Source: a virus
IMG/VR virus record: IMGVR_UViG_3300025411_000008
Location: 67,917 to 131,916 of that record
Reading direction: 5' to 3' (one strand)
Length of the DNA stretch: 64,000 nt
Under the pieces are notes generated by a model, which did not search any database, was not told where the DNA came from, and worked only from the letters and a program-made list of their open reading frames with translations. Positions 41,574 through 61,046 of the stretch are shown in pieces. The position numbers and the translations under genes were made by a program. Within the stretch, counting starts at the first letter, position 1. Every line of letters starts with the position of its first letter.

Positions 41574-42126
41574 GGTGTAGCCCTTTGTAGATAGTAGAAC
41601 GATTGCTATCCCCTATACCAAGAACTATATGTATTTACATTATTCTCTCTTTTTTTCTATCTACTTTAGTGCACCTAGTATTTCATACGTGGCCAAGGCC
41701 TCCGGCATTTTTAATTCTTACCAGTACGATCTCAACGCCTGCTCTATCGAATACCCCATAGGGCTGCCCGCCATTTTTTAAAGGCGTTTCTATACGCTCC
41801 CATTGGGACCCCTATTGGCGAGCCTTACAGAGCCTTTTAGGCCCCTCTCAAGGCACTCCTCTAAAACCCTTTAGTTCTGGAAATGGCAAAACCTACCATC
41901 CTATTTCACGCCTTGGATTGCGTGTTAGTTACACGCTAGCAAAAGATTATGAACTTCTTTGCGTCCTTGGGCACAATGTCCAAGTGAGGCTGAGAACTCA
42001 TGGTCCTAGCAATCACCTGTATGTTGCTGAACTACAGCACCGTACAGCTGTGTGCGCAAACGTACTACTCAGTAGTGCGCGAACGTACGCAGCAACCCAA
42101 CACCTATGCATTAGAAAGAGATTAAA

Positions 42127-42312
42127 ATGAAGCGTTTTCAGCTGATTTCCCTGCTCCTTGGTAGCTTTGCGTTCACGTTCGCAGTATCGTTCGTGAACAC
42201 AATGATCTCGTGGTACACACCCATGGGGCAGGCACAGACCGTACTCACGGTCTCGTTGTCGTTCACCTTCGTGGTGTTCGTGGCTGCAGTCCTGTACACA
42301 GCCAAGAAGTAG
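42127..42312 (+). CDS. small membrane protein (first gene of the plus-strand region)
   Basis: 61 aa, two TM segments. Confidence 0.65.
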   Translation: MKRFQLISLLLGSFAFTFAVSFVNTMISWYTPMGQAQTVLTVSLSFTFVVFVAAVLYTAKK

Positions 42313-42319
42313 TACGCAA

Positions 42320-42392
42320 TGCCGAAATCATCACGTCGGGAGATGTTGTGGTCGTCGTAGGGTGATGCCTACGGCCTGATGATGGCAGTCAG
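42320..42392 (+). ncRNA. type II hammerhead ribozyme HH1
   Basis: TGCC-GAAA-[stem III]-GTC|-[stem I GTCGTAGG/CCTACGGC, loop GTGATG]-CTGATGA-T-GGCA; predicted cut after 42353. Confidence 0.88.
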
Positions 42393-42394
42393 CT

Positions 42395-42442
42395 AACTAA
42401 ACCAGTCCTGAGGAGGACACTATGAAGGAAGTAACAACGATC
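42395..42442 (+). repeat. 48-bp direct repeat, copy 1 (RBS + first 7 codons)
   Basis: Identical to 42843-42890. Confidence 0.95.
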
Positions 42443-42790
42443 GACGCTGCTAAGGCTTTGGTTGAGCACTACGCTGCTGCGGCTGAGCTCATGACTGCTG
42501 AGGCTAAGGCTGAGTACGAGGCTGCTTTGGCTGCGTACGAGGCTGTTGAGGCTAAGTACGAGGCTAAGCAGGACGCTGCTTGGGCTAAGCGTGACGCTGC
42601 TAAGGCTGAGTACTACGCTGCTCAGGCTGAGTTCAAGGCTGCCGAGGCTGAGTTCGACGATGCTTGGGCTGAGTACCACGCTGCTTTGGCTAAGTACGAC
42701 GCTGCTTTGTCTAAGCCTGAGGTCAAGGCTGCTTGGGCTAAGTTCTACGCTGCTATGGCTGAGCTCAACGCTGCTCAGGCTGAGCAGTAA
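42422..42790 (+). CDS. Ala-rich helical repeat protein
   Basis: 122 aa, 7-residue repeats A-A-(W/L)-A-(E/K)-(Y/F)-x, strong RBS. Confidence 0.75.
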   Translation: MKEVTTIDAAKALVEHYAAAAELMTAEAKAEYEAALAAYEAVEAKYEAKQDAAWAKRDAAKAEYYAAQAEFKAAEAEFDDAWAEYHAALAKYDAALSKPEVKAAWAKFYAAMAELNAAQAEQ

Positions 42791-42842
42791 CAGCTCGGTT
42801 CACAAGGGGTATGAGCTCCACCCCACCCAACGGGCTCAACCC

Positions 42843-42890
42843 AACTAAACCAGTCCTGAGGAGGACACTATGAAGGAAGTAACAACGATC
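42843..42890 (+). repeat. 48-bp direct repeat, copy 2
   Basis: Identical to 42395-42442. Confidence 0.95.
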
Positions 42891-43130
42891 AGCGGTTCCG
42901 TCTACCTCATCAATGAAGATGAGCAGATGTGGTGCCGGAAGTCAACTGCCCCTGTGCGCAAGTACGATAACGGGGAGTACGTCGACACCGCTCTGGCACC
43001 AGAGAACGAGGACTGGCAGTCGTACATCGATGTTGTGTTCGGTCTCGGTCTCCACATCGAGTACATCACGGACAACAACCGCTTCGGCACGATCAACTCG
43101 ACTCCAATCGACAAGATTGTGCAGTTGTAA
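42870..43130 (+). CDS. hypothetical protein
   Basis: 86 aa; T.SGSVY.I and STPI..I motifs; strong RBS. Confidence 0.7.
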   Translation: MKEVTTISGSVYLINEDEQMWCRKSTAPVRKYDNGEYVDTALAPENEDWQSYIDVVFGLGLHIEYITDNNRFGTINSTPIDKIVQL

Positions 43131-43135
43131 CAAAC

Positions 43136-43196
43136 GCCGAATCCCCGAAAGGGGAAGTGCTGGGGTGATGCCCAGTGCCTGATGATGGCAGTCACC
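43136..43196 (+). ncRNA. type II hammerhead ribozyme HH2 (U15.1-A16.1 variant)
   Basis: GCC-GAA-T-CCCC-GAAA-GGGG-A-A|-GTGCTGGG-GTGATG-CCCAGTGC-CTGATGA-T-GGC-AGTCACC; predicted cut after 43156. Confidence 0.8.
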
Positions 43197-43224
43197 ACCA
43201 CAACTAGTAAGGAAAAAGATAACA

Positions 43225-43521
43225 ATGAAGTATGTCTACATGGCTACTTGGCGCTATGAGTCGATCATCGGTGACATTACCGACGAGAACTGGTACAACG
43301 TTGAGGACCGTCCGGATTACGACGGTGACTTCGTAGAGCCACGGGTTCGTGTCTTCGAGTACCTCGAGGATGCAATCAAGCTCTACTCGGTCTTCGGGTT
43401 CGAGTTCACATCTGAGCGCTTTGGTTCCGTCAACGGATGGCGTCACCGGAAGTTGGCACCAAACTCTGGCGTGACGATTTCAACTCAGATCGTCATCGAG
43501 CGTATCAGCATCACCAAGTAG
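43225..43521 (+). CDS. hypothetical protein
   Basis: 98 aa with RBS. Confidence 0.65.
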   Translation: MKYVYMATWRYESIIGDITDENWYNVEDRPDYDGDFVEPRVRVFEYLEDAIKLYSVFGFEFTSERFGSVNGWRHRKLAPNSGVTISTQIVIERISITK

Positions 43522-43535
43522 TAAGCAGTTCAATC

Positions 43536-43605
43536 TCTGCTGTAGCTCAGTGGTAGAGCAGCGAACGTATGTTCGTAGTCGTGGGTTCGATTCCCACCAG
43601 CAGTA
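43536..43605 (+). ncRNA. tRNA-like element with non-canonical anticodon loop
   Basis: Canonical D and T arms, 6-bp acceptor stem plus a U1/U72 mismatch; anticodon arm GCGAAC-GTAT-GTTCGT has no 7-nt loop. Confidence 0.75.
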
Positions 43606-43779
43606 CGATGGTGTTTTACACACACCAGGCAACAAGAGGACGCGCTCGGTCCGTCCGGCACCTCGGTCATAGCGACCCAAAGGACTTCGGTCCCTCTGCA
43701 CAGGGGTTCTGCTCCTGTGCAATAACACGGCCACCGACCGTGTCAGCGGTACTGACACACAACTAGATGGAGAACCATC

Positions 43780-44676
43780 ATGGCAAAAAATGCCAACTCG
43801 GTGCCTAGCACCAACACCGTCCCATCCACCCTCGGCATGGACAAGGAGGTCGTGCAGCAGCACAAGCGCGACTTCAAGTCCAAGTCGACCGGACAGGACG
43901 GACACGACGACTTCATGTCGGCGGACGTCACGCAGTTCCTCGCACTCGGTCTCATCGCTTTCGATGAGGTCCAGGCTGCGGCGAACCTGCTGATGAAGCA
44001 GACGTTGGACTTCGCCATCGGCAAGTCCTTCGACATCTTCACCGCTGCACGTGAGGGTCACCTGGACTACGTCGAGCACGTCATCGCCGTGGCTGAGCAG
44101 CTTCAGCCTGACGACAACGTGACGCAGGACGACATCTTCTTCGGCTCGTACTACAAGGTACGCCAGCAGGTGAAGATCGTCTCAGGTCTCAAGAAGGAAG
44201 TGGAAGAGGACGGTTCTGTCTTCGGCTACTACTTCGAGATCGAGCGTCGCAACGTGCTCTCGTCCGGCAAGGCATTCCCTTGGAAGGGTGCCAAGCTGCT
44301 GGGTGCAGGCATTCACGAAGACTTCAAGCTCTACGCTAAGGTCGACGCGAACGAGCAGCCCACGGGTGAGTTCTACATGCTGGACCGCTCTGACGACGAA
44401 GTCTACGTCGAGCTCGGTGACACCAGCGTGTGGACCTCGTGCATCGACGACATCACGGACCGCAACATCGTGAAGCGTTACAACGCGCTTCTCGCATCTG
44501 TGGACCGTGACGTCAAGGTGCGCTGGTACAAGAAGGGCTTCGCCATGGGAGACGCGAACACTGCACAGCAGTTCGTCTTCTGGAACGTCTTCAAGATGTT
44601 CAAGGCGGAGTCCGACTACCAGCTGGTGGACGACACCACGGTTGAGGTCGCATCAACCGAGCCTGCTAACGCTTAG
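43780..44676 (+). CDS. hypothetical protein (probably highly expressed)
   Basis: 298 aa, strong C/G third-position bias, GGAG RBS. Confidence 0.75.
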   Translation: MAKNANSVPSTNTVPSTLGMDKEVVQQHKRDFKSKSTGQDGHDDFMSADVTQFLALGLIAFDEVQAAANLLMKQTLDFAIGKSFDIFTAAREGHLDYVEHVIAVAEQLQPDDNVTQDDIFFGSYYKVRQQVKIVSGLKKEVEEDGSVFGYYFEIERRNVLSSGKAFPWKGAKLLGAGIHEDFKLYAKVDANEQPTGEFYMLDRSDDEVYVELGDTSVWTSCIDDITDRNIVKRYNALLASVDRDVKVRWYKKGFAMGDANTAQQFVFWNVFKMFKAESDYQLVDDTTVEVASTEPANA

Positions 44677-44832
44677 TTAGCTCCAGTCTTGAGTCAGGAC
44701 TGGGTTACCTTAAACTGACTCACCCCCAGACATATGTCGATGTTCTTAGGCTTATAACCTAAGTGGGGGGCCCTGTAGTACAGGCTGTATGCAAACTATG
44801 TATACAGAACAATCCCTGAGGAGGGAAACACT

Positions 44833-44997
44833 ATGGCAAAGGCAAACTTTGTCCCCGCTGGCTTCACCATTGGTGAGAAGGCACCCAAGGAATCCGCAAG
44901 GGTTCACTTCACTGTCATCCGCAACGAGGCGGAGCAGAGGAAGGTCACGCGGGACTTGGGACTCTTCATTGAGTTCAAGACACGCAAGAATCGGTAA
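44833..44997 (+). CDS. small hypothetical protein (54 aa)
   Basis: Hand-translated MAKANFVPAG...RKNR* after a GAGGAGG RBS. Confidence 0.65.
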   Translation: MAKANFVPAGFTIGEKAPKESARVHFTVIRNEAEQRKVTRDLGLFIEFKTRKNR

Positions 44998-45002
44998 ACA
45001 AC

Positions 45003-45062
45003 GCCGAATCGCCGGGAGGCGACGTCCTAGAGTGATGTCTAGGGCCTGACGATGGCAGTCAG
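45003..45062 (+). ncRNA. type II hammerhead ribozyme HH3 (U15.1-A16.1 variant)
   Basis: GCC-GAA-T-CGCC-GGGA-GGCG-A-C|-GTCCTAGA-GTGATG-TCTAGGGC-CTGACGA-T-GGC; predicted cut after 45023. Confidence 0.8.
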
Positions 45063-45088
45063 TTTACAACCTAACTAGGAGAATCACT

Positions 45089-45232
45089 ATGTCAGTATTA
45101 GAATCAGGTCAAAAGATCTGTGTGGCCCCCGATTGTGATAAAGACCACGGCCCCGAGGTTGTGTCCTGTAAATCACAAATTGTTTCACGTGAGCTTTTGT
45201 GTCACGTGAAACAACTTCCCACGACGATGTAA
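45089..45232 (+). CDS. small hypothetical protein (47 aa)
   Basis: Hand-translated MSVLESGQKIC...TTM* after an AGGAG RBS. Confidence 0.45.
   Translation: MSVLESGQKICVAPDCDKDHGPEVVSCKSQIVSRELLCHVKQLPTTM
45181..45213. promoter_or_regulatory. tandem parS-like sites
   Basis: TGTTTCACGTGAGCTT (12/16) and TGTGTCACGTGAAACA (15/16) versus consensus TGTTTCACGTGAAACA. Confidence 0.6.
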
Positions 45233-45259
45233 TGTTTCGCGTCAGTTGTTATAGAGTGC

Positions 45260-45679
45260 ATGAAGAAAACATTCTATGACTATGTTGAGAAGACTGACAG
45301 CTGTTGGCTGTGGGTAGGCCCTTTGAATAAGGATGGGTATGGTTACTGGCGGGATAAGCTAGTCCACCGTATAACTTATCTAGAATATCATGGGGCTTAC
45401 CCACCCAACACAGTAACAGATCATCTGTGCAGAGTAAGACACTGTGTTAACCCCGAACACCTCGAGGCTGTATCTATTGCTGAGAATGTTCGTAGGGGGC
45501 GGGCAAGCGAAGCTACTAAGCTACGCCACGCTTCAGTTACTCATTGTCCAAATGGGCATGAATACACTGAGGATAATACGTATCGTTCAGTGGGGAAAGA
45601 TGGCGCCCCTCGACGTCACTGTAAGGCTTGTGTCAAGACACGTCGTAAAGCCAGTTACTATTCTAATAGAGCGTTGTAA
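45260..45679 (+). CDS. HNH endonuclease
   Basis: CWLW.G....GYG, HR..Y, DHLCRVRHCVNPEHLE, plus a C-terminal HCPNGH..CKAC. Confidence 0.9.
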   Translation: MKKTFYDYVEKTDSCWLWVGPLNKDGYGYWRDKLVHRITYLEYHGAYPPNTVTDHLCRVRHCVNPEHLEAVSIAENVRRGRASEATKLRHASVTHCPNGHEYTEDNTYRSVGKDGAPRRHCKACVKTRRKASYYSNRAL

Positions 45680-46214
45680 TGGCGTATCGAGTACGTTAAG
45701 TGTAGGCTGTTAACCTAATAAGTTAATAAGTTATTACGTCAAAGCCGTGTTGTTCATTACATTCAAAACACAAACGTGCCCCGCTTATACTAATAAGCTA
45801 AGCTGCCCTGTGTGGGAACCCTTTCACAGTTAAGGGGCATGTGCGTATTCGATGCGTCATTAGGATGCTCTATTAGAACATTGTACCTAGTACCCTATGT
45901 TCTATGGGGGGCTGATAAAAAATTGTCTTGTGTTTAGACACAAGCTACTTCCCCACAGTACAAATATACTTGTACTTGTATAGTAGGTTGCAATAGCATC
46001 ATCATCTAGTGAGTGGATGGTGGTGCTATTGGGACAAACTATAAGGGGCAAGTCCTACCCTAAGTAAGGAGTTACTAGTGAATACATTCGCTGTGTGGGC
46101 TTGAGTACCACCTTTGATGGATGCATAGGTAGTTCGGGATTTTTTTCCTCCTACCCGGACTACCTATGGGTCAATCAAGGGACTTACCCACCCACAACTA
46201 GTAAGGGAATTAAT

Positions 46215-46664
46215 ATGAGTGCATTAATCAGTTTCCAGCACGTGATTCATAGCTTGGAAGGCGGTGTTGTAGACCTCGCCTGCTTCAAGTACGAGTTCAT
46301 GGAGCTCAACCACATCCACCTCGCCGTTGTAGACTCTTCGGACTACTACGACGTGATACAGATGTCCGCTGCCCAGACTGGTGGCACGTGGAAGGTTGAC
46401 TACTCCATTCCTGTCTGGTACATTGACTGGCCCTTGTACAACATCAAGCCCGTGCAGAATGCCAAGGACGTTGCTATCGCAGAGTTCAAGGCGTTGAAGC
46501 GTGTCATTCGTGACCAGCAAACCCACCTGGACATTGTTCAGCGTGACGCATGTGGCACAGAGAGTGGTAAGATTGAGAAGTCTTTAGCTCACTTGATGTA
46601 CAATCAGGGCGAGTCACTCTGGTCGCCCGAGCGCGGTGACGGCTGGGGTATCGTAGGTCAGTGA
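46215..46664 (+). CDS. hypothetical protein
   Basis: Start placed at MSALIS after AACTAGTAAGGG. Confidence 0.65.
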   Translation: MSALISFQHVIHSLEGGVVDLACFKYEFMELNHIHLAVVDSSDYYDVIQMSAAQTGGTWKVDYSIPVWYIDWPLYNIKPVQNAKDVAIAEFKALKRVIRDQQTHLDIVQRDACGTESGKIEKSLAHLMYNQGESLWSPERGDGWGIVGQ

Positions 46665-46776
46665 CCGGGGGTTGTACGTATTCTACCGAGCAGCAGTTTG
46701 GTTCGGTAGTTTACTAGGACATCCGGTCCTCCACTAGAGATGGTGGCTAAACTATCCTAACTAGTAAGGAGAACGC

Positions 46777-47220
46777 ATGAGTAAATTCATGGTACTTGGT
46801 AATCACAGAGGGACAACGTTTGACTTTGGTGTCTTCGACTCTCAGTCTGATGCTATCCTAGCAGTTGAGATAGCACGGTCTGGAGATCGAAGCCCTGAGT
46901 CCCCGCTCGAGTGGAGTCTTGTTTCAGACAGCAAAAACCGATTCGGGTTCTACCACTACGCTAGCGCGTACGATGGTACGTGCACGACCGAGTTTAACAT
47001 TGTTGAGTTGAACGAGCCACGAACCACTCTCGAAGAGATGATCGAACACTCGTTCGGTTTCACTCCCGGTGAAGAGGAAGCTGACCCAGTTGATCCAGAG
47101 CCAGTCGACATCTCTTCTGCAAAGAAGAAGAAGCCACTCACGGTCCTGGACCCATACGTTGACCCCCTCAAGGTTGAAGCTCGTGAAGCTTGGGCTAAGA
47201 TGGAGAGGGAGGAAGACTAA
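46777..47220 (+). CDS. hypothetical protein
   Basis: 147 aa, AAGGAG RBS. Confidence 0.7.
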   Translation: MSKFMVLGNHRGTTFDFGVFDSQSDAILAVEIARSGDRSPESPLEWSLVSDSKNRFGFYHYASAYDGTCTTEFNIVELNEPRTTLEEMIEHSFGFTPGEEEADPVDPEPVDISSAKKKKPLTVLDPYVDPLKVEAREAWAKMEREED

Positions 47221-47489
47221 TGCAGCTGGACACGAAGCGCCTTATCGATGCTGGGATCACCGATGCTGACATGGTAGTCATCTTCGGTGCATTCGACATG
47301 ATGATGAGTGGTCTTGAAGACACCATCGAAGGCTCGAGAGAAGACCTCCCCTTTACTGACAACGACCTCGACCGTGTGAAGCAGCGCACTCAAGAGGTTG
47401 CTGCCAAGATCAAGGCTTGGGAAGATGCCAAGGTTGAACTACGTGGTGAGCAATTCATGACGTGGTTTCAATCAGGTAACCAAGACTGA
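47220..47489 (+). CDS. hypothetical protein
   Basis: 89 aa, TAATG coupling. Confidence 0.65.
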   Translation: MQLDTKRLIDAGITDADMVVIFGAFDMMMSGLEDTIEGSREDLPFTDNDLDRVKQRTQEVAAKIKAWEDAKVELRGEQFMTWFQSGNQD

Positions 47490-47623
47490 TTGGCGATTGC
47501 AGCCCACTCACGAGCCGGAACATTGGTTCGTGAGTGGTATGGGATAACCAATCCCCCACTACGGATGGTGGTTAAACTATCCAAGTGCAGTACAATGCAG
47601 TAACTAGTAGGAAGGCAAGGTAC

Positions 47624-48184
47624 ATGAGTACACTGCGTAAGTTGTGTATCTGTGGTGCCTTCGTTGCGACAGCATTTGTTGTCACGCAACCAGGTGAGTT
47701 CACCTACGTGTCTGGGCAGCCCCAGTCATTAAGGGTGGCTCATGCTGCTGTCACTACGACGACGTATCCTGTTGAGGTTATCCCTCGCACGGTACTGACA
47801 TCGTATGCTGACAGTCAGCCCCTGGTTCTGATAGCTCCGTTGCAGCGATGGAACACAGAGTCATACGACCCAACAGCCACATGGCCCGATGCTACTGACC
47901 CAATCAGTACTCTTACGATGGCAGCGCAAGTAAAGTTTGCTTGCATACGCTATCGCGAGAGCAGGAATCACGTGCGCTCTGTGGAAATTCACAGTGGTGC
48001 TGCTGGTTGGTATCAGTTCACCCCATACATCTGGGGTTATGCACGGGAGTATATACCTGGGCTACCAGCTACAGCTGCAACAGCATCTGGAGACGAACAG
48101 TCGAAGGTTGCTGTGTGGTATTACAAGCGCAACAATGGTTTCTTCCCTGAATGGGAAGCTGACCAGGGCTTTTGTAATTTGTAG
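47624..48184 (+). CDS. secreted Rpf-like/lytic transglycosylase
   Basis: Signal-like N-terminus; CIRYRES, GAAGWYQF..IW and A..A..DEQ..VA...W lysozyme-like Rpf motifs. Confidence 0.72.
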   Translation: MSTLRKLCICGAFVATAFVVTQPGEFTYVSGQPQSLRVAHAAVTTTTYPVEVIPRTVLTSYADSQPLVLIAPLQRWNTESYDPTATWPDATDPISTLTMAAQVKFACIRYRESRNHVRSVEIHSGAAGWYQFTPYIWGYAREYIPGLPATAATASGDEQSKVAVWYYKRNNGFFPEWEADQGFCNL

Positions 48185-48248
48185 TATGCATTACTGGTAT
48201 GAGTTCCACCAGACCCAACGGGCTCACCCAAATAGTAAGGAGACTACA

Positions 48249-48419
48249 ATGTGGATTTCATCAGACACACCAGAGCCAGAAATTGACCCTGAGTTTGCGG
48301 AAGTAATGAAGCAATTCCTTTTGGAAGGAGAGGCTTCAGGCAAGTTCAAGGTGCTTCGTGGTAAGGAGGCAGAGGAAGCTCTGCGTCATGCCCCTCGTCG
48401 TGGTTGCATCGGTTACTAG
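48249..48419 (+). CDS. small hypothetical protein
   Basis: Start placed at MWISSD after AAGGAG. Confidence 0.6.
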   Translation: MWISSDTPEPEIDPEFAEVMKQFLLEGEASGKFKVLRGKEAEEALRHAPRRGCIGY

Positions 48420-48423
48420 ACCG

Positions 48424-48702
48424 ATGAGCCAAGACGGGTACGTCAGAGACGGTAGTCGTAAGTGGGACAACCCTGCTTACAACTGGTACAACCATTGGGA
48501 TTTGCGTCAAAAGCGTGGGACAGGTTTGCACCCTGACCCATTGAACACGGTTTCAGGTTGGTGGTGTTGTTCAAGATGTTCATTAAGCATGGGCAAAACG
48601 AGGCGCAAGCAAGCGAAGTCGTTTGCACATCGTTGGGAGCGTCGTACTTACAAGTACAAGATCCAATCCATCTTGCAGGAAGAATTGCAAGAGACCTTCT
48701 AA
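48424..48702 (+). CDS. basic hypothetical protein
   Basis: Start placed at MSQDGY; CCSRC. Confidence 0.5.
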   Translation: MSQDGYVRDGSRKWDNPAYNWYNHWDLRQKRGTGLHPDPLNTVSGWWCCSRCSLSMGKTRRKQAKSFAHRWERRTYKYKIQSILQEELQETF

Positions 48703-48858
48703 GTATTAACGGGCACCGAGTGGCAGTAACTATAAGTTATTGTCACTCGGTTGCTGCGAGAGATATCCAAGTCAGACGACGGGTTTGGGTATCTCTCGGA
48801 GTAATCTTATCCCGTTACTCTGTAGTAAATAGTAGGGACAACTAGTAGGAGAATCACA

Positions 48859-49365: not shown

Positions 49366-49371
49366 TTTGGT

Positions 49372-49442
49372 TCTGCAGTAGCTCAATGGCAGAGCACTAC
49401 ACCCATGGTGTAGGGGTGGAGGTTCGATCCCTCCCTGCAGTA
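49372..49442 (+). ncRNA. tRNA-Met(CAT)-like element, probably non-decoding
   Basis: Cloverleaf with a U1/U72 mismatch; anticodon loop CC-CAT-GG lacks U33 and can close to a 3-nt loop. Confidence 0.72.
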
Positions 49443-52243: not shown

Positions 52244-52252
52244 GGAGAGAAG

Positions 52253-52558: not shown

Positions 52559-52559
52559 T

Positions 52560-53766: not shown

Positions 53767-53900
53767 GGGTGTGTAGTTTAAGCTGGAAAAACCCTTAGTA
53801 GCTGTGACATCCAACTATCTAAATATAGAAAATTGTTGGTTAGCACTCAGAACTTACGTCACGGTTAAAGGGAATGGTGGTTCGAACCCACCCACACCCA
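53767..53900 (+). ncRNA. tRNA-like element with ~60-nt expansion of the anticodon arm
   Basis: Acceptor GGGTGTG/CACACCC-A, D stem GTTT/AAAC, T arm GGTGG-TTCGAAC-CCACC, extended stem TAGCTGTGAC/GTCACGGTTA. Confidence 0.8.
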
Positions 53901-53929
53901 CGCAGTACCAAACCAACTAGTAAGGAGAT

Positions 53930-54163
53930 ATGATGGAAATCAAGGTAGAACAGCAGGGACCTGAGCTTCGTATGCAAGTCATCTTTGATGAGCCTGCGCA
54001 GTCGGAAGTCTTTCGTGAAGAGTTCGAATCAATGATGGAGCGCATCGCCAAGCGTCTTGACGCAGTGGTACTCGGTGCAGAAACCGATGGTTCAATCTCT
54101 AAGGAAGAGATCCGTAAGCAGTTTGCAGAGACTGTTAACAAGTTCGTTAGCAAGGAGGAGTAA
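53930..54163 (+). CDS. hypothetical protein
   Basis: 77 aa, AAGGAG RBS. Confidence 0.7.
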   Translation: MMEIKVEQQGPELRMQVIFDEPAQSEVFREEFESMMERIAKRLDAVVLGAETDGSISKEEIRKQFAETVNKFVSKEE

Positions 54164-54579
54164 TGATTGCACGTGAACTAAGGTGGTCTCGCAGGAATGA
54201 CGATGATGATATCATCTGGACTGCGAAGACTTATCCTAATCACGGGTATTGGCATCACAACGTAGACCTGTCTTTTACTTTGGAGTCAGGTAGGCGTTAT
54301 GCCATCACCAACCGCAATGCTGTCCTCACTGTGCGTAAGCGCGAAGAGGGCAAGAAGGTTGCCACAAAGGTTCTGTTACAGAAAGAGTTTGATAATTCTT
54401 ATGTTGCTAAGAACCTGATTGACTCACTTCTGTATTCAGCTCGTATGTTGTACGAGAAGTTACCACACATGGCAGAACAGTGGTTCTTAGAGCAGCTGAC
54501 TAACATGCCTGATGCTGATGAACCAGAGCAACCCGATGTTCATACTAAGGTTCATTACCCAAGAGGGTATCCCTGCTGA
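54163..54579 (+). CDS. hypothetical protein
   Basis: 138 aa, TAATG coupling. Confidence 0.7.
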   Translation: MIARELRWSRRNDDDDIIWTAKTYPNHGYWHHNVDLSFTLESGRRYAITNRNAVLTVRKREEGKKVATKVLLQKEFDNSYVAKNLIDSLLYSARMLYEKLPHMAEQWFLEQLTNMPDADEPEQPDVHTKVHYPRGYPC

Positions 54580-54694
54580 TTAGGCATTCTAATCACAATA
54601 GTTGTGTAACGTAAGTTACACAGCTATACTATGTGTAAGTAGCACAGAAGGCAGCCATGCCTACAAAATGGCAATCTAACAAGGAGTATATACT

Positions 54695-55057
54695 ATGACT
54701 GCAATGTCAGATGAAATTAAGCTTGCAATCCTTCAGGACCAGCTTAAGAACATTACAATGGGCGTGAAGATGATGATCACCATCCAAGCGACCTTTGAGG
54801 CACAGCGTCAGTACATGGCTGGTATCTTGCCAGATGAACTCAAGAATGTCCCAGAGACAGATGACTTCAAGAACATGTACATGGCTGCAAGTGAGGCATA
54901 CAACGAAGTAGTCCGTAACATGACTATCTTTGTTGACAACATGACTCAGGTGTTTGATTACAGTTTTGCTGACACCCTGCCAACAGACAAGGAAGGCTTC
55001 CAGAAGATGGCTGAAGAATTGTCTGAGCAGGTTGACAAGTACAACGAAATCAACTGA
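54695..55057 (+). CDS. hypothetical protein
   Basis: 120 aa, AAGGAG RBS. Confidence 0.7.
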   Translation: MTAMSDEIKLAILQDQLKNITMGVKMMITIQATFEAQRQYMAGILPDELKNVPETDDFKNMYMAASEAYNEVVRNMTIFVDNMTQVFDYSFADTLPTDKEGFQKMAEELSEQVDKYNEIN

Positions 55058-55058
55058 C

Positions 55059-55226
55059 ATGGATATCTTCAGTAAGGTAATAGCTTACGAGCAAGATGAG
55101 CTCAACGAAGAAGAAACCGTTGAGTTGTTCCAAGAGCTTATCGACAATGGTATGGCCTGGAGTCTTCAGGGCCACTACGGTCGTACAGCCACGAACCTCA
55201 TCGAGAATGGGTTGTGCCATGCCTGA
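55059..55226 (+). CDS. small phage protein (LFQELID.G.AWSLQGHYGRTA motif)
   Basis: Start placed at MDIFSK; motif recalled from phage early proteins. Confidence 0.65.
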   Translation: MDIFSKVIAYEQDELNEEETVELFQELIDNGMAWSLQGHYGRTATNLIENGLCHA

Positions 55227-55356
55227 TACAATTCCACGTCAGGAAGTAATCGAGATGTTAACTCATATCGAGATGCTTCTGCTTGCAATGCAAGACCAGG
55301 AAGCATGGTCGTATACTCACATTCTTTGTAAGGCAATCAAAGACGGTGAGTATTAA
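55219..55356 (+). CDS. small hypothetical protein
   Basis: Start placed at MPDTIP, overlapping the upstream stop. Confidence 0.5.
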   Translation: MPDTIPRQEVIEMLTHIEMLLLAMQDQEAWSYTHILCKAIKDGEY

Positions 55357-55367
55357 GTAGTAAGGTA

Positions 55368-55429
55368 GCTTCAGTTTGGTAACGAAGTTCAACAGTTCGA
55401 TTCTGTTGTGGAGCACTCCCAAGTAGGGA
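55368..55429 (+). ncRNA. mini tRNA mimic 1 (acceptor stem + T arm) with trailing hairpin
   Basis: GCTTCA/TGGAGC, CAACAG-TTCGATT-CTGTTG, then TCCC-AAGTA-GGGA. Confidence 0.65.
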
Positions 55430-55452
55430 AACAAATAGTAGGAAGGTATAGT

Positions 55453-56193
55453 ATGCCGACAGAAATCATCTGGGTACCAAAACCCGATGGTAAGACCTGG
55501 AATTCCAGTCGCACTCGTGACTTGGTTGACCTGGCTTTCACCATTGAGAGGAAGAGTGATGACCACACCATGATCATGATTCGTTGCTCTAAGAACAGCG
55601 ATGAAAATGGTCGTGCGAGGACTGTCATTGGTCGCGTCTACACTAAGAGTGTGTTAGCTGCACGGGAACTTGTTAAGCAAGTTGTCAGTGAAGCTAACAC
55701 GAAACCAAATCAGGAAGAAGCACGCAGTTGGCTCCTAAACCAAATGCTGGGATTCTCTCTTGATTTGTCTCCAGAGGGTCGACCATTGAATCCAGAAATC
55801 ATCAAGGATGGTGCATGGGTTACCAAGAATACTCTTGGTATGGTTGTGGCAAGCGAGACACCAGTCGCAGAGGAAGAGTTCGACGTTGCAGCACACGTTG
55901 AGTCCCTGCCTCTTGAGATTGACCTTAGCAAGCCAGTCACTGAGACACCAAGTAGTGGTATCTACAAGGTGGATCCAACGACTGAGTCATGGATTTCATG
56001 GGGTGATATTGCAGATGACCTTAGCAAGTCAATTGCAGCGAAGCGTGCTGCAATCGCAATGAAGGAGACTGTCGAAGCAGTTATGGAAACAGCTACACCT
56101 GTAGCTGAGCCAGTTGCTGAGGTAGTATCCACAGAAGCACCGCAGTTCATTACCATTAATGGTAAGCAAATCCCGATTGCCTATCCCAAATAG
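55453..56193 (+). CDS. hypothetical protein
   Basis: Start placed at MPTEII after GGAAGG. Confidence 0.7.
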   Translation: MPTEIIWVPKPDGKTWNSSRTRDLVDLAFTIERKSDDHTMIMIRCSKNSDENGRARTVIGRVYTKSVLAARELVKQVVSEANTKPNQEEARSWLLNQMLGFSLDLSPEGRPLNPEIIKDGAWVTKNTLGMVVASETPVAEEEFDVAAHVESLPLEIDLSKPVTETPSSGIYKVDPTTESWISWGDIADDLSKSIAAKRAAIAMKETVEAVMETATPVAEPVAEVVSTEAPQFITINGKQIPIAYPK

Positions 56194-56261
56194 CTAATCT
56201 GGTTGACCTGGGTAAGTCAATAAACTGCCCACCCAAACAACTAACAAGTAAGGAATAAGCT

Positions 56262-56663
56262 ATGAAGCAGTACGCTATTAAGGCAACCGCAAACAACGAC
56301 CTTGATGTTGTTGAGTTTGATGTAACGGACTCTTACGACACCATCAAGGAAGCTACTGGCGGTGGTACTATCCAATGCATCTACCTGAGTGAGCTCGACG
56401 TAGACATGTGGATTGATGACAATGGCAAGTTGGTTAACGAGCCAGAAATCAATGCGTTCGGTTCTGCCCTGTGGGTTCACTCATACGGCATGACCGACAT
56501 CATCGTTGGTGATATCATCATTACCGGTGGTGTAGATGATGAAGGCAATACGCTTGGTCTCAATGAAGAACAGGTTGCTACTGTCCTCAAGGCTGCCAAC
56601 GACACAATGCGTTTGGTAGCAGTAGATGCATTCAGCGAAGAGAACGTAACGATTGTAGTTTAG
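56262..56663 (+). CDS. DUF3846-like protein
   Basis: GGGTIQ, MWIDDNGKL...IN..GS and DIIVGDIIITG. Confidence 0.7.
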   Translation: MKQYAIKATANNDLDVVEFDVTDSYDTIKEATGGGTIQCIYLSELDVDMWIDDNGKLVNEPEINAFGSALWVHSYGMTDIIVGDIIITGGVDDEGNTLGLNEEQVATVLKAANDTMRLVAVDAFSEENVTIVV

Positions 56664-56670
56664 TAAGGTG

Positions 56671-56732
56671 GCCCTAGTCTGGCGATGAAGTATGGTGGTT
56701 CAATTCCATCTTAGGGCGCTCCCAGGTAGGGA
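56671..56732 (+). ncRNA. mini tRNA mimic 2 with trailing hairpin
   Basis: GCCCTAG/TTAGGGC, GGTGG-TTCAATT-CCATC, then TCCC-AGGTA-GGGA. Confidence 0.7.
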
Positions 56733-56761
56733 ACGTAGTAAGTTAATTAAGGAGTATAACT

Positions 56762-57319
56762 ATGGGTTTAGACCAGTATTCATGTAAGGTGCCACGTCAT
56801 GCTGACAACAATGACTTTTCTTATGTAAACGGAAAAGGTGTTGAACAGTTAGCTTATTGGCGTAAGCACCCTAACCTCGAAGGTTGGATGGAGCAGACTT
56901 TCAATCGCAAGGCTGATGCACAGAGCTTCAAAGGCTACACTGATTTCGGTACGGAAATCATTGCTACTGCTATTGAGCCCGAGGGCGAGTCGTTGACGAA
57001 AGAAGCGATAGCAGAGTTGTCTAACAAGGCTATGAATGACAAATTATTGCAAGAATTAATCATGACTGAGTCTTTCGCTTCCATGGCTGCTAACATCTCT
57101 AAGACTCGTGTGTTCAATGGGCAACCAATTAGGTTAACAATTGGCGACCTCGATCAACTTGAGATGCATGTTCGTCTTGAGACGTTACCTCCAACTACAG
57201 GTTTCTTCTTCGGTGACAATGCAGATAAAGAGTACTTTAAAGATGACTTGAAGTTCATCGAAGAAGCACGTAAGGCAATTGCAGATGGCTTTGATGTGTA
57301 TTACGAAAGCAGTTGGTAG
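56762..57319 (+). CDS. phage protein (MGLDQY...YWRKHPNL.GW family)
   Basis: MGLD.Y, YWRK, GFFFG and Y.SSW motifs. Confidence 0.75.
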   Translation: MGLDQYSCKVPRHADNNDFSYVNGKGVEQLAYWRKHPNLEGWMEQTFNRKADAQSFKGYTDFGTEIIATAIEPEGESLTKEAIAELSNKAMNDKLLQELIMTESFASMAANISKTRVFNGQPIRLTIGDLDQLEMHVRLETLPPTTGFFFGDNADKEYFKDDLKFIEEARKAIADGFDVYYESSW

Positions 57320-57333
57320 TTAAGTAATAGGTT

Positions 57334-57398
57334 ACCCTAGCCAGACGGTGGTGATGTATGCTAGTTCGATTCTAGCTTAGGGTGCTCCCAAGTTGGGA
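57334..57398 (+). ncRNA. mini tRNA mimic 3 with trailing hairpin
   Basis: ACCCTAG/TTAGGGT, GCTAG-TTCGATT-CTAGC, then TCCCA-AGT-TGGGA. Confidence 0.7.
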
Positions 57399-57423
57399 AG
57401 TAAGTTAAATAAGGAGTAATACT

Positions 57424-57816
57424 ATGGGTGACCGTGGACAAGTAAAGATTACAGCTGAGGGCAATCCTGACCTGTACCTTTACACACACTGGGGTGCTGA
57501 ATCACTGCCTGAAGTCGTAGCGACTGCGTTAGCACGTGGCCGTGGTCGATGGACAGATGACGAGTACCTTAACCGCATTATCTTCTCAGAGATGATTCAA
57601 GACGATGTAATGTCAGAAACCGGTTACGGTATTGGTTTCGGTGAGCACGGTGACGTGTGGCGTGTCGTAGAGATTAACTACGACAACAAGACCGTTGCTA
57701 TTCGTGAAATCGATTACGAATCATGGGACCCAGAGAGTGGCATCGACAATATGCCATGGAAGTACACAACTGAGTCAATGGAATACGAACTGTTCATTAC
57801 TGAACACACTAACTAG
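57424..57816 (+). CDS. phage protein (MGDR...LYTHWG family)
   Basis: MGDRG, LYTHWG, RW.D..YL.RIIF..M and GYGI. Confidence 0.75.
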   Translation: MGDRGQVKITAEGNPDLYLYTHWGAESLPEVVATALARGRGRWTDDEYLNRIIFSEMIQDDVMSETGYGIGFGEHGDVWRVVEINYDNKTVAIREIDYESWDPESGIDNMPWKYTTESMEYELFITEHTN

Positions 57817-57824
57817 GAGGAACG

Positions 57825-58088
57825 ATGGATTGGTTTGACGACGCTAAGTGTAAAGGCGTTAGTCAAGACGTTTTCTTTCTTGAGGGTCATGCAGGCCCAA
57901 AAGAATCAAGAGAGAGAGTAGTTGCTGCTAGGGTTTACTGCAATGCTTGCCCTGTAAAGCAGAAGTGTCTTGAGTATGCAATAAAGAACAAGGAGAAGCA
58001 CGGCATTTACGGCGGTGCTACTCCAGTAGAACGCCATGCTATGCGTGGTTTTATAAAGAAAGAAAGTAAGTTAAGTGTTGTTAAGTGA
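57825..58088 (+). CDS. whiB: WhiB-family transcription factor
   Basis: W...AKC, FF, CNACPVKQKCLEYA and HGIYGG.T..ER. Confidence 0.9.
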   Translation: MDWFDDAKCKGVSQDVFFLEGHAGPKESRERVVAARVYCNACPVKQKCLEYAIKNKEKHGIYGGATPVERHAMRGFIKKESKLSVVK

Positions 58089-58199
58089 TTATGGCCTAGA
58101 GCCACCAACAAACTTGGTCGAAGCCCATCTAGTAATTGAAAAGTTGCTAGATCGGTGCGATCAACTCAATGAAATCATCGAAGAGTTAGAGGAGTATTA

Positions 58200-58406
58200 A
58201 TGGCTAAGTATATTATCCGTGACTGGATGAATAACGTACTGTTTGACGGTATCGAGTTCGACAGTTTTGAGGAAGGATGGGATTGGTTGTACGTCAACCA
58301 CCCAGAGCCTGAGGAGTCAAGTTCCGACTGGATTGACGGTTGGAATGACGACTGGTTCGTAGTAGAGAAAGGTTACAGTGTGACCGGAAACAAGGAGGAA
58401 GAGTAA
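58200..58406 (+). CDS. hypothetical protein
   Basis: 68 aa, AGGAG RBS. Confidence 0.65.
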   Translation: MAKYIIRDWMNNVLFDGIEFDSFEEGWDWLYVNHPEPEESSSDWIDGWNDDWFVVEKGYSVTGNKEEE

Positions 58407-58554
58407 TGGATCCAGAGACACTAGAGGCAGCAATTAGCTTAACTAAGTGGTGCATTAAAGATGCAGAGAATAGCGGCGACTTAGAACACGCTATTCACAA
58501 TCTCAAGCGCATCTACGCATTCTTGACAGACACCGAGATAGGAGAGGAGGTATA

Positions 58555-58746
58555 ATGCAAGAGTATTACACAAGAGTTTCTATGGACGTTGCTGTTACGG
58601 CAAACAGTCCTGAAGAAGCAACTGAGAAATTAAATGATTGGCTAGACCGTCAGCAACTGATCGACAAGTCAATAGAGTCTGATTTCTGGTGGGACAACAT
58701 CGATTGGGATGATTGGGCTATCGTAAACACAGGAGAGGAAGCATAG
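58555..58746 (+). CDS. hypothetical protein
   Basis: 63 aa; V.A.S.EEA motif; GGAGG RBS. Confidence 0.65.
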   Translation: MQEYYTRVSMDVAVTANSPEEATEKLNDWLDRQQLIDKSIESDFWWDNIDWDDWAIVNTGEEA

Positions 58747-58994
58747 TGAGTAAGAAATATCCTATTTGTTTAACATGTGGTATGGAGTTAGATACTCCAT
58801 TAAAGCACCCATGTGACGAATGTGATGATGGTACGTGCGATGAATGCTGGGAGGTATAATGAAATGTAGTATATGTCAACTACCAATTCATGAGCCATTC
58901 GTTGGCCATGACTATGTAGATCATGTATGCTGTTTGAGGGATGAAACCCTCATGTGTGAGCATGATCATCGAGCAATCAAGTAAGGAGTAAGTT

Positions 58995-59183
58995 ATGATA
59001 TGTGAACCATGTGATCATGGACCTACTGTATATGAAAACTATTGTCAACATTGCAATGGTTTATGCCCCATATGTAGTGAGATGGGTGAGTGTGACACCT
59101 GTGGTAGAGAATATGAATTAGCTAGTCGTGATGGTCGCTGTGGCGACTGTGGCGATTGCAACGAGTGTTGTACCCACCTATAA
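58995..59183 (+). CDS. small Cys-rich protein
   Basis: 62 aa, multiple CxxC motifs, AAGGAG RBS. Confidence 0.6.
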   Translation: MICEPCDHGPTVYENYCQHCNGLCPICSEMGECDTCGREYELASRDGRCGDCGDCNECCTHL

Positions 59184-59206
59184 GATAGAAAGTAAGGAAA
59201 TAAACT

Positions 59207-59377
59207 ATGGCTTTCGCCACTAAAAAGAAGCTTTCAATGTGTCCACGTTGTAAGGAAACGTATTCAGGGTTCCCCGCTCTGTCTCGGCTCGACAACAAGA
59301 CATCAATCTGCTCCCCCTGTGGGACAGACGAGGCAATGCAGGACTTCGCAGGCGTCCCGCTCACTAACTTCCTATAA
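59207..59377 (+). CDS. small Zn-finger protein (CPRC...ALSR.DN...IC..CG..EA)
   Basis: Hand-translated 56 aa after an AAGGA RBS. Confidence 0.65.
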   Translation: MAFATKKKLSMCPRCKETYSGFPALSRLDNKTSICSPCGTDEAMQDFAGVPLTNFL

Positions 59378-59496
59378 GGAACTAACTCCTCGCATTTACA
59401 CACATAGTCTATACGATCAAACAAAGGAGGCAGTACCGAGTAAGCTAATATAAACCATGATGCAGTAAAATCTAGTTGAAGAAAAAAAGGCCTAGC

Positions 59497-59763
59497 ATGC
59501 AAGAGAATGCTACAGCGGTGTATAGGCTAAATCAGGTCATCGAGGAGCTCGCCAAGATTGGTTACAATTTTGAGGGCTTGCTCGATGGCCTGAAACTATA
59601 CAACGAATATAAGGGACATCTAGACATAGGCATTTATGAAGCCGCTCTAGAGTCATTTACCACAAGTATCACTGCATTGGGAGAGCAGATAAATAACTTC
59701 CATGCGGTTCTGTCTTACCTTAAGGATACCGTAGAGAACGGCATCCCCGGTAGTATTAGTTAG
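59497..59763 (+). CDS. hypothetical protein
   Basis: Start placed at MQENAT. Confidence 0.55.
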   Translation: MQENATAVYRLNQVIEELAKIGYNFEGLLDGLKLYNEYKGHLDIGIYEAALESFTTSITALGEQINNFHAVLSYLKDTVENGIPGSIS

Positions 59764-59773
59764 TAAAGTTAGC

Positions 59774-59848
59774 GCCGAAACCCCCGCTTTCTACGGGGGG
59801 TCTATGAAGGGGTTGTTTCCTTCATACCGATGATGGTAGACTATAACT
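59774..59848 (+). ncRNA. type II hammerhead-like ribozyme HH4 (U4C core variant)
   Basis: GCC-GAAA-CCCCC..GGGGG-TC|-TATGAAGG-loop-CCTTCATA-CCGATGA-T-GGT; loop GGTTGT can pair with downstream ATAACT; predicted cut after 59802. Confidence 0.7.
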
Positions 59849-59862
59849 AGAAAGGAGTAAGT

Positions 59863-60549
59863 ATGCCTGATCTCAAGCAGATCATTGCAACGGTAGAGAA
59901 GCTACTCCGCTTAGCTGCTAGTAGCAATCACCCTGGTGAAGTCGAGGCCGCTCAGGCCCAGGCTCAGAGGATTATTACCAAGTATCAGATTGAAGAAGCT
60001 CAGCTTACTGGTCATGTAGCTAGTGGTAACGTAATCTCTAAACAGGTTCCGACTCCGAAGCCATATGCGTCAGCTAAAGCTATGCTACTCAACTACATAG
60101 CTAAGCATAACTTCTGTAAGGTTCTCCGTACAGATGACTATGCGGTTATCTATGGATACGCTAGCGACGTCGAAATCTGCGTCATGATGTATGAGATTAC
60201 TAACCTACACATGGTATCAGAGATGAAAGCTAAGCTAGAAGTAGCTAAGGCACGTAATGAAGATGGTTTCCATACTAAGACGTGGATCAAGAGCTTCTTT
60301 GGCGGCTATTGCATTGGTATCGGTGAGCGCATTAAGGAATCAAAGTCAGAAGTTATCAATCACGCAGAGACAGCTGGCACATCAGTCGAGCTGGTGCTAC
60401 GTGATAAGCAACACGCAGTGGAAGACTTCTTCCAGCAGATAGAGCATGGCCCCGCTCGGGACTATGAGCTATCATCTAAAGCAGGTTATCAAGATGGTTT
60501 AGATAGCTCGAAGAATGCAGATATCAATCAAACTAAGTTAGAAGGATAA
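59863..60549 (+). CDS. DUF2786-like protein
   Basis: VEKLLRLA.S....E..AA...AQRIITKY N-terminus; SF..G and GY..G motifs. Confidence 0.72.
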   Translation: MPDLKQIIATVEKLLRLAASSNHPGEVEAAQAQAQRIITKYQIEEAQLTGHVASGNVISKQVPTPKPYASAKAMLLNYIAKHNFCKVLRTDDYAVIYGYASDVEICVMMYEITNLHMVSEMKAKLEVAKARNEDGFHTKTWIKSFFGGYCIGIGERIKESKSEVINHAETAGTSVELVLRDKQHAVEDFFQQIEHGPARDYELSSKAGYQDGLDSSKNADINQTKLEG

Positions 60550-60552
60550 CAT

Positions 60553-60852
60553 ATGAGTAAGGGAATAGCATGGCGAGTGCGTGAGTTGGCCGTTGGGTTG
60601 CCCAATAACAAGGGTAATGATTGGGTCTACGATAGCAACTGCTATGGTAAAGAAACTAGTGATTTTATTTATACTAGGACTGAGTTGCCAGAAGGGCAGC
60701 GTTATAAGCTAAAGAAGATATGCGAGGGTTGCCCCGTTATCGACACTTGCAGGTACGAAGCAGTACGTAATCAAGAAGAAGGTTGGTGGGGTGGTATGGA
60801 CCGCAAAGAACGAATGGAATGGGCAGCTAAAGAGCTGTTCCATCTAGTATGA
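60553..60852 (+). CDS. whiB: WhiB-family transcription factor (divergent)
   Basis: W...SNC, ICEGCPVIDTCRYEA and GWWGGM...ER. Confidence 0.8.
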   Translation: MSKGIAWRVRELAVGLPNNKGNDWVYDSNCYGKETSDFIYTRTELPEGQRYKLKKICEGCPVIDTCRYEAVRNQEEGWWGGMDRKERMEWAAKELFHLV

Positions 60853-61046
60853 TGAAGATTATTTACGCGCTACTATATGATACAAGCTACAATAGCATGG
60901 AGATCTCAGGGCTTTACGCTTCGCTCGAGAAAGCTCAGGCTGCCGTGATCGGTGCTGAGTGGGCAAAGCACGAGAACTTAGCTATGTGGGAAGCTATCAC
61001 TGGTGAACAATATTGGTGCATCACAGTCCACGCTATGTTAGATTAA
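60849..61046 (+). CDS. hypothetical protein
   Basis: 65 aa; G.YASLEKA motif. Confidence 0.6.
   Translation: MMKIIYALLYDTSYNSMEISGLYASLEKAQAAVIGAEWAKHENLAMWEAITGEQYWCITVHAMLD

Follow-up and report, generated by a model that had tools for sequence, protein, structure and literature searches.

Structured RNAs of several kinds lie between the small genes of a plus-strand phage operon, and at orthologous gene borders in related phages one kind takes the place of another. The DNA analysed is a stretch of 64,000 nt (hereafter, the window) that makes up bases 67917–131916, i.e., the last 64 kb, of a linear 131,916-bp virus record with an estimated completeness of 89%. Its plus-strand block at 41900–61046 is the non-structural operon of a ~132-kb phage related to actinobacterial myoviruses; the operon is probably early, a label taken from its gene content only. 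The intergenic devices of this block include four hammerhead ribozymes and six tRNA-shaped elements (two cloverleaves, three minihelices and one long-arm form). Their structures covary, their positions are kept in relatives, and they are swapped for one another at the same border. The role that they share is probably that of RNA cut sites, acted on either by self-cleavage or by RNase P and RNase Z. A more specific reading, which we hold with slightly more doubt than confidence, is that hammerheads and tRNA-shaped RNase P/Z substrates serve this lineage as cistron separators that are equivalent in function and can be exchanged freely, and that at least three RNA families are undescribed. The three candidates are the minihelix with its trailer hairpin, a hairpin-tail motif with loop CCUGGGUA and tail UAAACUGCCC, and a modular RNA locus of ~1.3 kb.

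Relatives of the phage were found via its large terminase as 22 loci (23 records with its own genome), and the early regions of eight fetched relatives were used for slot mapping and covariation. For the slot map, 37 window proteins were placed on these eight regions by tblastn and the RNA matches were overlaid. The denominators in the following list are the relatives that hold the downstream gene.

Before the AAA ATPase gene (49508): tRNA mimic in the window; among seven relatives, tRNA mimic in three, minihelix in two, hammerhead in one, none scored in one
Before the 54695 gene: 13-bp hairpin in the window; hammerhead in two of four relatives (G060, G062)
Before the 55453 gene: minihelix in the window; hammerhead in four of six relatives
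Before the DUF3846 gene (56262): hairpin-tail motif in the window; among six relatives, hairpin-tail motif in two (G049, G066) and minihelix in two (G055, G062)
Before the 57424 gene: minihelix in the window; minihelix in five of six relatives
Before the DUF2786 gene (59863): hammerhead in the window; hammerhead in five of eight relatives

At a further border, that of the window minihelix at 56668, a minihelix occupies the same place in G049 and G066. Within 41900–47400, RNA elements are almost the only DNA that the window shares with the relatives, and gene order around the slots is partly rearranged. Conserved position alone could be explained by shared ancestry, whereas the finding of one device in place of another at an unchanged border is harder to explain unless both do the same job. 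As the devices interchange at the same border, we therefore suggest a shared job, plausibly an endonucleolytic cut. A preliminary description of this DNA had staked its proposal on conservation of position or structure in related phages; both are conserved, and the replacements at orthologous borders come in addition.

Hammerhead ribozymes in the window and in related phages

The window was searched with Rfam over 41500–61500, where RF02276 (Hammerhead_II; gathering cut-off of 37 bits) finds four hammerheads, all on the plus strand, with E values of 2.6e-4 to 5.4e-2 in this 20-kb search. These are the four hammerheads of the preliminary description, at the same sites, and they are the sole matches to RF02276 and to the lineage model R2, built from 17 hammerhead copies, in the whole 131,916-bp record. 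Each is placed after a stop codon and before the next Shine-Dalgarno site, in agreement with the earlier view of strand-specific devices at cistron borders.

42320–42394, plus strand: type II hammerhead; RF02276 31.5 bits, R2 52 bits; predicted cut site 42353/42354
43135–43197, plus strand: type II hammerhead, U15.1-A16.1 core variant; RF02276 27.9 bits, R2 64.7 bits; predicted cut site 43156/43157
45002–45064, plus strand: type II hammerhead, U15.1-A16.1 core variant; RF02276 36.7 bits, R2 67.3 bits; predicted cut site 45023/45024
59773–59845, plus strand: type II hammerhead, core with CCGAUGA for CUGAUGA (C4); RF02276 35.5 bits, R2 46.3 bits; predicted cut site 59802/59803

By fold, with three helices around the core and the open ends in stem II, all four appear to be type II hammerheads and are predicted to cleave themselves. 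The consensus core (CUGANGA...GAAA with A15.1-U16.1 and H17) is found in one of the four, the copy at 42320, which carries an extra U after A9 and lies between the stop codon at 42310–42312 and a start at 42422. The copy at 45002 has a counterpart with 85% identity in the relative G052, while that at 59773 is located upstream of the DUF2786/DUF7168 gene. In each window hammerhead, 4–5 bases of loop I are complementary to the 3′ tail, as expected of a loop I–tail pseudoknot, and the two segments co-vary across the inspected hammerheads of the lineage (both judged by eye, the latter uncounted).

Among the 22 terminase relatives, RF02276 has matches in nine at E ≤ 0.01 and above its cut-off in four. 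With R2, which scores the window hammerheads at 46–67 bits, 53 matches are obtained in 13 of the 23 records (four in the phage's own genome and up to 13 in one relative), including hammerheads of G049, G060 and G062 that had been seen by eye, that Rfam misses at E ≤ 1 and that R2 scores at 50–59 bits. Over 35 hammerheads from the window and the eight relative regions, the three stems consist of 97.4% standard pairs versus 67.3% in shuffles, with both-side changes in 12 of 14 pairs (142 cells), in an alignment fitted to the R2 model, which favours pairing. The catalytic-core positions are conserved over the 35 copies, and hammerheads of relatives again show the extra U after A9, the C4 variant and a U3-A8 covariation. 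In all 14 hammerheads whose flanks were inspected, the 32 nt downstream contain a Shine-Dalgarno-like sequence or a start codon.

Several core variants of the relatives can be located individually. Hammerheads with a UUGAUAA core, in which U3-A8 replaces the C3-G8 core pair, are found at 2642–2703 of L102 (minus strand) and 15999–16060 of L103 (plus strand). Others have GAUAA for GAAA (L102 4734–4796 and 5571–5634, minus strand; L103 12876–12938, plus strand) and fit the U13a insertion variant (Perreault et al. 2011, PMC3088659; this and the other papers are cited for those portions of their text that were available). A 16-mer of the hammerhead tail was tried as a family marker and dropped: it matched 48 viral contigs, of which only eight had an RF02276 match.

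One alternative is that the elements serve chiefly as intergenic cassettes, mobile or promoting recombination, by which small early genes are shuffled, with RNA processing as a side effect. The promoter-stem-loop cassettes of T4-type phages would be an analogue, and such cassettes would fit the near-restriction of shared DNA to RNA elements in 41900–47400, the partly rearranged gene order around the slots, the variation in hammerhead number from 0 to 13 per record, and a perfect 48-nt repeat over the ribosome-binding sites and first codons of two genes (see below). However, the compensatory changes preserve RNA helices rather than DNA sequence, the catalytic core is kept over all 35 hammerheads, and every copy is on the coding strand, which leaves this alternative rather improbable in our estimate.

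tRNA-shaped elements

The six elements that the preliminary description had called tRNA mimics are all tRNA-shaped, as judged by RF00005, by the minihelix model R1 or by fold.

43536–43606, plus strand: full-size tRNA mimic; RF00005 57.2 bits (cut-off 29); 6-nt anticodon loop
49372–49443, plus strand: full-size tRNA mimic, upstream of the AAA ATPase gene; RF00005 56.0 bits (cut-off 29)
53767–53901, plus strand: tRNA-like cloverleaf with an acceptor stem of 7 bp, a T arm and, where the anticodon arm would be, an arm of ~80 nt; fold z −2.7
55365–55431, plus strand: tRNA minihelix with trailer hairpin; R1 86.2 bits
56668–56734, plus strand: tRNA minihelix with trailer hairpin, between the DUF3846 gene and the next gene; R1 90 bits
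57331–57400, plus strand: tRNA minihelix with trailer hairpin; R1 83.3 bits

Both full-size mimics have a U1:U72 mismatch. ARAGORN assigns no amino acid to the mimic at 43536, and the mimic at 49372 has the anticodon loop CCCAUGG, which is without U33. At the same position in G049, G050 and G069, its counterparts retain the CUGCAG acceptor stem and the D and T arms and have loops of 5, 4 and 7 nt, respectively, again with no U33. With anticodon loops of 4, 5, 6 or 7 nt, the full-size mimics are tRNA shapes that cannot be ordinary decoders. The element at 53767 lies at the 3′ end of the modular non-coding locus described below; it has no Rfam match, and ARAGORN accepts it as a tRNA only if an 'intron' of 40 nt is assumed.

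The minihelices consist of a 7-bp acceptor stem, a bridge of 16–19 nt containing GG, and a 5-bp T stem with a tRNA-type loop (UUCGAUU or UUCAAUU), with no anticodon arm. One base past each of the three window copies starts a CUCCCA...GGGAA hairpin. R1 has three matches in the phage's own genome and matches in 11 of the 22 relatives. Across 21 distinct minihelix sequences, 94.4% of cells are paired versus 72.7% in shuffles (acceptor stem 90.5%, T stem 100%), both-side changes occur in 15 of 16 pairs, and the observed covariation was reached by no shuffle. A hairpin 1–4 nt past the acceptor end is common to the minihelices (helix 3, 94.3% paired) and both full-size mimics. An acceptor stem stacked on a T stem fits an RNase P or RNase Z substrate of the t-element kind, and we predict cleavage at these elements on that basis. 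Furthermore, the minihelix that precedes the ATPase gene in G060 has the CUGCAG acceptor stem of the full-size mimics, and the two forms are therefore linked by descent. A tRNA-like element that occupies the ATPase slot of G066 was recognised solely by eye, being absent from the R1 and RF00005 matches.

Short exact words from these elements lead back to the same phages: a 17-mer of the tRNA mimic gave nine loci in viral contigs, of which three are true copies, all in already-known relatives, and a 16-mer of the minihelix trailer gave five loci, four of them in known relatives. ARAGORN 'introns' of 1.1–1.4 kb in relatives were rejected as artefacts that enclose protein genes and join halves of two separate minihelices. 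In L100 (record G058), a regular-looking tRNA-Leu(UAG) at 8685–8767 (minus strand) lies within a cluster of 13 hammerheads and is followed by a CUCCCA trailer; hence, the trailer hairpin is not restricted to mimics.

The tRNA-shaped RNAs, perhaps together with the hairpin-tail motif and the modular locus, might instead be stable functional non-coding RNAs in their own right, either decoys or sponges for host tRNA-targeting defence nucleases or Y RNA-like cofactors, whose intergenic place reflects expression only. The mimic structures are under selection and retain the tRNA elbow (D-loop GG and T loop) while having lost the ability to decode; tRNA-mimicking Y RNAs are known from mycobacteriophages (PMC4201824), and phage tRNAs with altered anticodon loops have been linked to evasion of host nucleases (PMC10264068). 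We nonetheless consider this unlikely: no Ro60/TROVE gene was found in the record and no Rfam Y-RNA match was obtained, and a decoy role leaves unexplained both the constant placement between stop codon and ribosome-binding site and the hammerhead found in relatives at a border that elsewhere has a tRNA mimic or minihelix.

Decay offers another account, in which the tRNA-like elements are degenerating tRNA genes and the variant hammerheads dead relics without present function. The phage does have eight ordinary tRNA genes elsewhere, three of the four window hammerheads deviate in their cores, and the CUGCAG stem shared by the G060 minihelix and the full-size mimics looks as if the minihelix were derived by deletion. 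However, 90–100% pairing with compensatory changes over 21 distinct minihelix and 34 distinct hammerhead sequences would not be expected of relics, nor would fixed borders in diverged genomes, and we regard decay as very improbable.

Hairpins, a hairpin-tail motif and a modular RNA locus

By greedy cover with open reading frames (ORFs), the non-coding share is at least 17% of the plus-strand block versus 4% of the minus-strand block. Among hand-defined gaps whose folds were scored against dinucleotide shuffles, z is −3 or lower in eight of 22 on the plus strand versus two of 10 on the minus strand, with mean values of −2.76 and −0.99, respectively. The several long hairpins of the preliminary description are thus present, with perfect stems of 13–17 bp, and the ~1.3-kb modular RNA that it had outlined is also recovered.

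45680–46214, plus strand: strongly folded 535-nt gap, minimum free energy −210 kcal/mol, z −10.7 (strongest in the window)
46665–46776 (copy 1) and 47490–47623 (copy 2), plus strand: structured gaps with a 60-nt repeat (family D11), z −5.0 in both
48703–48858, plus strand: gap with two perfect 17-bp hairpins, z −7.6
51745–51883, plus strand: gap with a 14-bp hairpin and further hairpins, z −5.7
52559–53929, plus strand: modular RNA locus of 1.37 kb, no ORF longer than 89 aa, no Rfam match
53355–53552, plus strand: two copies of the hairpin-tail motif (53365, 53518), inside the modular locus
54580–54694, plus strand: gap with a 13-bp hairpin, from the fold
56198–56242, plus strand: hairpin-tail motif, loop CCUGGGUA and tail UAAACUGCCC (copy at 56208), ~25 nt upstream of a Shine-Dalgarno site

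The strongest fold directly follows an HNH_3 endonuclease gene (45260–45679, plus strand); it has no Rfam match at E ≤ 10, including to group I introns, and is not conserved in the relatives.

The hairpin-tail motif occurs four times in the phage's own genome, where 0.56 copies are expected by chance, and at least 15 more times in relatives. Its hairpin stem covaries, and its proposed GGG:CCC pseudoknot helix is invariant apart from four G-U pairs, in an alignment that omits L059 at 16302 and L098 at 14792 (no 3′ motif) as well as the one own-genome copy that lies beyond the window. Over 41500–61500, the motif has no Rfam match, be it to preQ1-type or other riboswitches, at E ≤ 10. About ten H-type pseudoknots had been proposed for the window; of these, one family (53365, 53518 and 56208) has a covarying stem, with the pseudoknot itself unproven, and the others are candidates. 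The preliminary description had also seen none of the devices in the minus-strand region, which holds for hammerheads and minihelices but not for tRNAs, with five ordinary tRNA genes on the minus strand of the window, nor for the hairpin-tail motif, whose copy beyond the window is on the minus strand.

The modular locus contains five copies of a covarying hairpin module (52794, 53042, 53231, 53457 and 53598), and the module recurs eight times in four relatives. DNA of the locus is conserved in G049, G050, G064 and G069. A near-identical 29-nt repeat, of a kind for which none is expected by chance, has one copy at 52602–52630, where the locus starts, and another at 59380–59408 (both plus strand), in the gap preceding the ORF that lies upstream of the last hammerhead. 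Its function might be that of a phage-specific promoter or of a processing signal. Rfam finds no other ribozyme, riboswitch, intron, Y RNA, GOLLD or ROOL in 41500–61500 at E ≤ 10, and no other such family in the early regions of the eight relatives at gathering scores.

Predicted cut sites in a phage operon

Hammerheads cleave to give a 5′-OH and a cyclic phosphate, the stacked acceptor and T stems are what RNase P and RNase Z recognise, and 5′ hairpins protect bacterial mRNAs. In the mechanism that we propose, cistron borders would carry interchangeable RNA 'cut-here' cassettes. A hammerhead cutting itself would leave the upstream piece with the stem III hairpin and a cyclic phosphate, and would give the downstream mRNA a 5′-OH directly on the stem I hairpin; as read from the sequence, the first base of the downstream RNA is the first base of stem I. 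Full-size mimics and minihelices would present their 12-bp acceptor/T stem stack to host RNase P and RNase Z, and with a cut after the discriminator base, the downstream mRNA would begin 1–4 nt before the small hairpin. A 5′ end so near a hairpin would be of the kind that resists 5′-end-dependent decay. The long perfect hairpins in other gaps may be RNase III sites or exonuclease barriers. We infer co-transcription, every one of these cleavages, and any effect on mRNA stability or translation.

Several observations weigh against this mechanism. All four window hammerheads (27.9–36.7 bits) fall below the 37-bit Rfam cut-off, and three of the four have non-consensus cores (U15.1-A16.1 in two, C4 in one). 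Hammerheads are lacking in 10 and minihelices in 11 of the 22 relatives, in both cases including the complete genomes G061 and G067, many of the others being fragments; since both complete relatives are without either device, the kit is optional within the phage group. The relatives are also not independent samples, because G055, G056 and G057 are near-identical, as are G060 and G063. After an RNase P cut, the upstream mRNA would have no hairpin at its 3′ end. None of the tRNA-like elements is followed by CCA, a contact used by the RNase P of some bacteria. The hairpin-tail motif is a possible H-type pseudoknot, unproven because the pseudoknot helix never varies. None of the 24 listed sequencing runs with this DNA is on record as RNA. 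Finally, the natural U15.1-A16.1 variant self-cleaves less efficiently, at least 10-fold slower (Perreault et al. 2011, PMC3088659), and the available part of that paper makes no statement on a C4 core variant. In favour of the mechanism, the region shows no sign of many transcription units, in a promoter scan that covered sigma-70 sites only: 16 sigma-70-like promoter sites are seen versus 20.2 expected and 18 intrinsic terminator-like sites versus 14.4 expected, neither being enriched.

The genomic setting of these elements is given by the following genes.

61944–63938, minus strand: large terminase, matching 229 phage-collection records at ~40% identity
57825–58088 and 60553–60852, plus strand: WhiB-family transcription factor genes, inside the operon
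22449–22794 and 28979–29053, minus strand: ordinary tRNA genes for Tyr, Gln, Ser, Asn and Asp (ARAGORN)

Terminase coverage is at least 80% in 224 of the 229 matching records, and 224 of the 229 are named as phages of Mycobacterium, Gordonia, Rhodococcus or Mycolicibacterium. As WhiB genes are a hallmark of actinobacteria and their phages, the terminase matches together with the two WhiB genes in the operon make it reasonable to infer an actinobacterial host. The runs listed with this DNA are labelled as freshwater or pond metagenomes. Other relatives were not gained by megablast of 41900–50000 against the phage collection (0 matches) or by a related-locus search with a 496-aa protein (0 relatives). 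The remaining three of the eight ordinary tRNA genes (Val, Arg and Thr) lie beyond the window in the first half of the genome, and ARAGORN finds no transfer-messenger RNA in the whole genome.

The products of the plus-strand block include, in addition to the two WhiB-type regulators, an HNH endonuclease, an AAA ATPase, a DUF3846 protein and a DUF2786/DUF7168 protein. Among 30 proteins (29 from the operon and the terminase), Pfam identifies no RNA-binding protein, and the sole nuclease is the HNH endonuclease. A search of the phage's own, ~89% complete record for five families found none of them encoded: RtcB, Rnl2-type ligase, RNase III, CCA-adding enzyme and Ro60/TROVE (PF05731). Near the start of the block, a 122-aa ORF (42422–42790, plus strand) consists of nearly nothing but 21-nt (7-residue) alanine-rich tandem repeats and has no Pfam match. 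The perfect 48-nt repeat mentioned above lies at 42395–42442 and 42843–42890 (plus strand) and spans a ribosome-binding-site hairpin (GUCCUGAGGAGGAC), the start codon and the first seven codons of two genes that are otherwise different.

The early polycistronic mRNA of phage T7 is cut by host RNase III at intergenic hairpins and its pieces end in hairpins, a precedent that the preliminary description had passed over. As in T7, processing is proposed here at RNA structures between genes; unlike in T7, the window hairpins, with their perfect 13–17-bp stems, are candidate sites only, and most borders use other devices.

A close published counterpart is the clustered hammerheads that flank single genes in phages and prophages, for which cleavage in vitro was reported and transcript processing hypothesised (Perreault et al. 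2011, PMC3088659). Also described there are type II hammerheads whose stem II has no more than two pairs, a loop I–tail pseudoknot, and natural U15.1-A16.1 and U3-A8 variants. As far as the available text of that paper goes, the clusters resemble ours in their single orientation, their location between single genes or short blocks, their type, their loop I–tail pseudoknot and their core variants, and they differ in that hammerheads here share borders with tRNA-shaped elements, the two being swapped between relatives, and in that the C4 variant (CCGAUGA) recurs at one orthologous border. The RNA punctuation originally reported for this operon is thus partly confirmed and its interpretation partly supported: the devices, their strand and their borders stand, while the word 'undescribed' was an overstatement in view of the 2011 publication.

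Mitochondrial tRNA punctuation and t-elements have been proposed to set mRNA 5′ and 3′ ends via RNase P and RNase Z (Forner et al. 2007, PMC1920247). There, too, tRNA-like structures lie between coding regions; unlike that organellar system, ours is from a phage and has a defined minihelix family with a conserved trailer hairpin, and its cleavage is predicted. The hammerhead part of the kit is accordingly of a kind already published, and tRNA-like punctuation is known from organelles. YrlA-type Y RNAs mimic the tRNA acceptor, D and T arms without decoding and occur in mycobacteriophages as well, and in an actinobacterial example, from M. smegmatis, RNase P cuts the RNA and CCA is added to it (Chen et al. 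2014, PMC4201824). In contrast to these RNAs as presented in the available text, the elements in the window come with no Ro60 gene found, no Ro-binding stem seen and no Rfam match, and are intercistronic. Lastly, theta (HDV-like) ribozymes adjoin decoding suppressor tRNAs of phages and were proposed to mature them (Kienbeck et al. 2024, PMC10879173). Like the hammerheads here, they are a small self-cleaving class linked to tRNA biology in phage genomes; the class is a different one, and in our case ribozymes and tRNA shapes alternate at mRNA borders. A literature search on tRNA-like punctuation in phages, with supplementary motif lists outside its scope, found no description of the minihelix family or of tRNA-shaped cassettes alternating with hammerheads in phage operons.

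The role of hammerheads in bacteria and phages is still called elusive (PMC13725137). Swaps between hammerheads and tRNA shapes at one border provide a ready-made genetic argument for both as RNA cut sites, and if the separator reading is true, bacterial and phage hammerheads would gain a defined job. Phages would then combine self-cleavage with tRNA-processing enzymes hijacked to determine where each early mRNA begins and possibly how long it lasts, and the compact cassettes would be useful as parts for operon design in actinobacteria.

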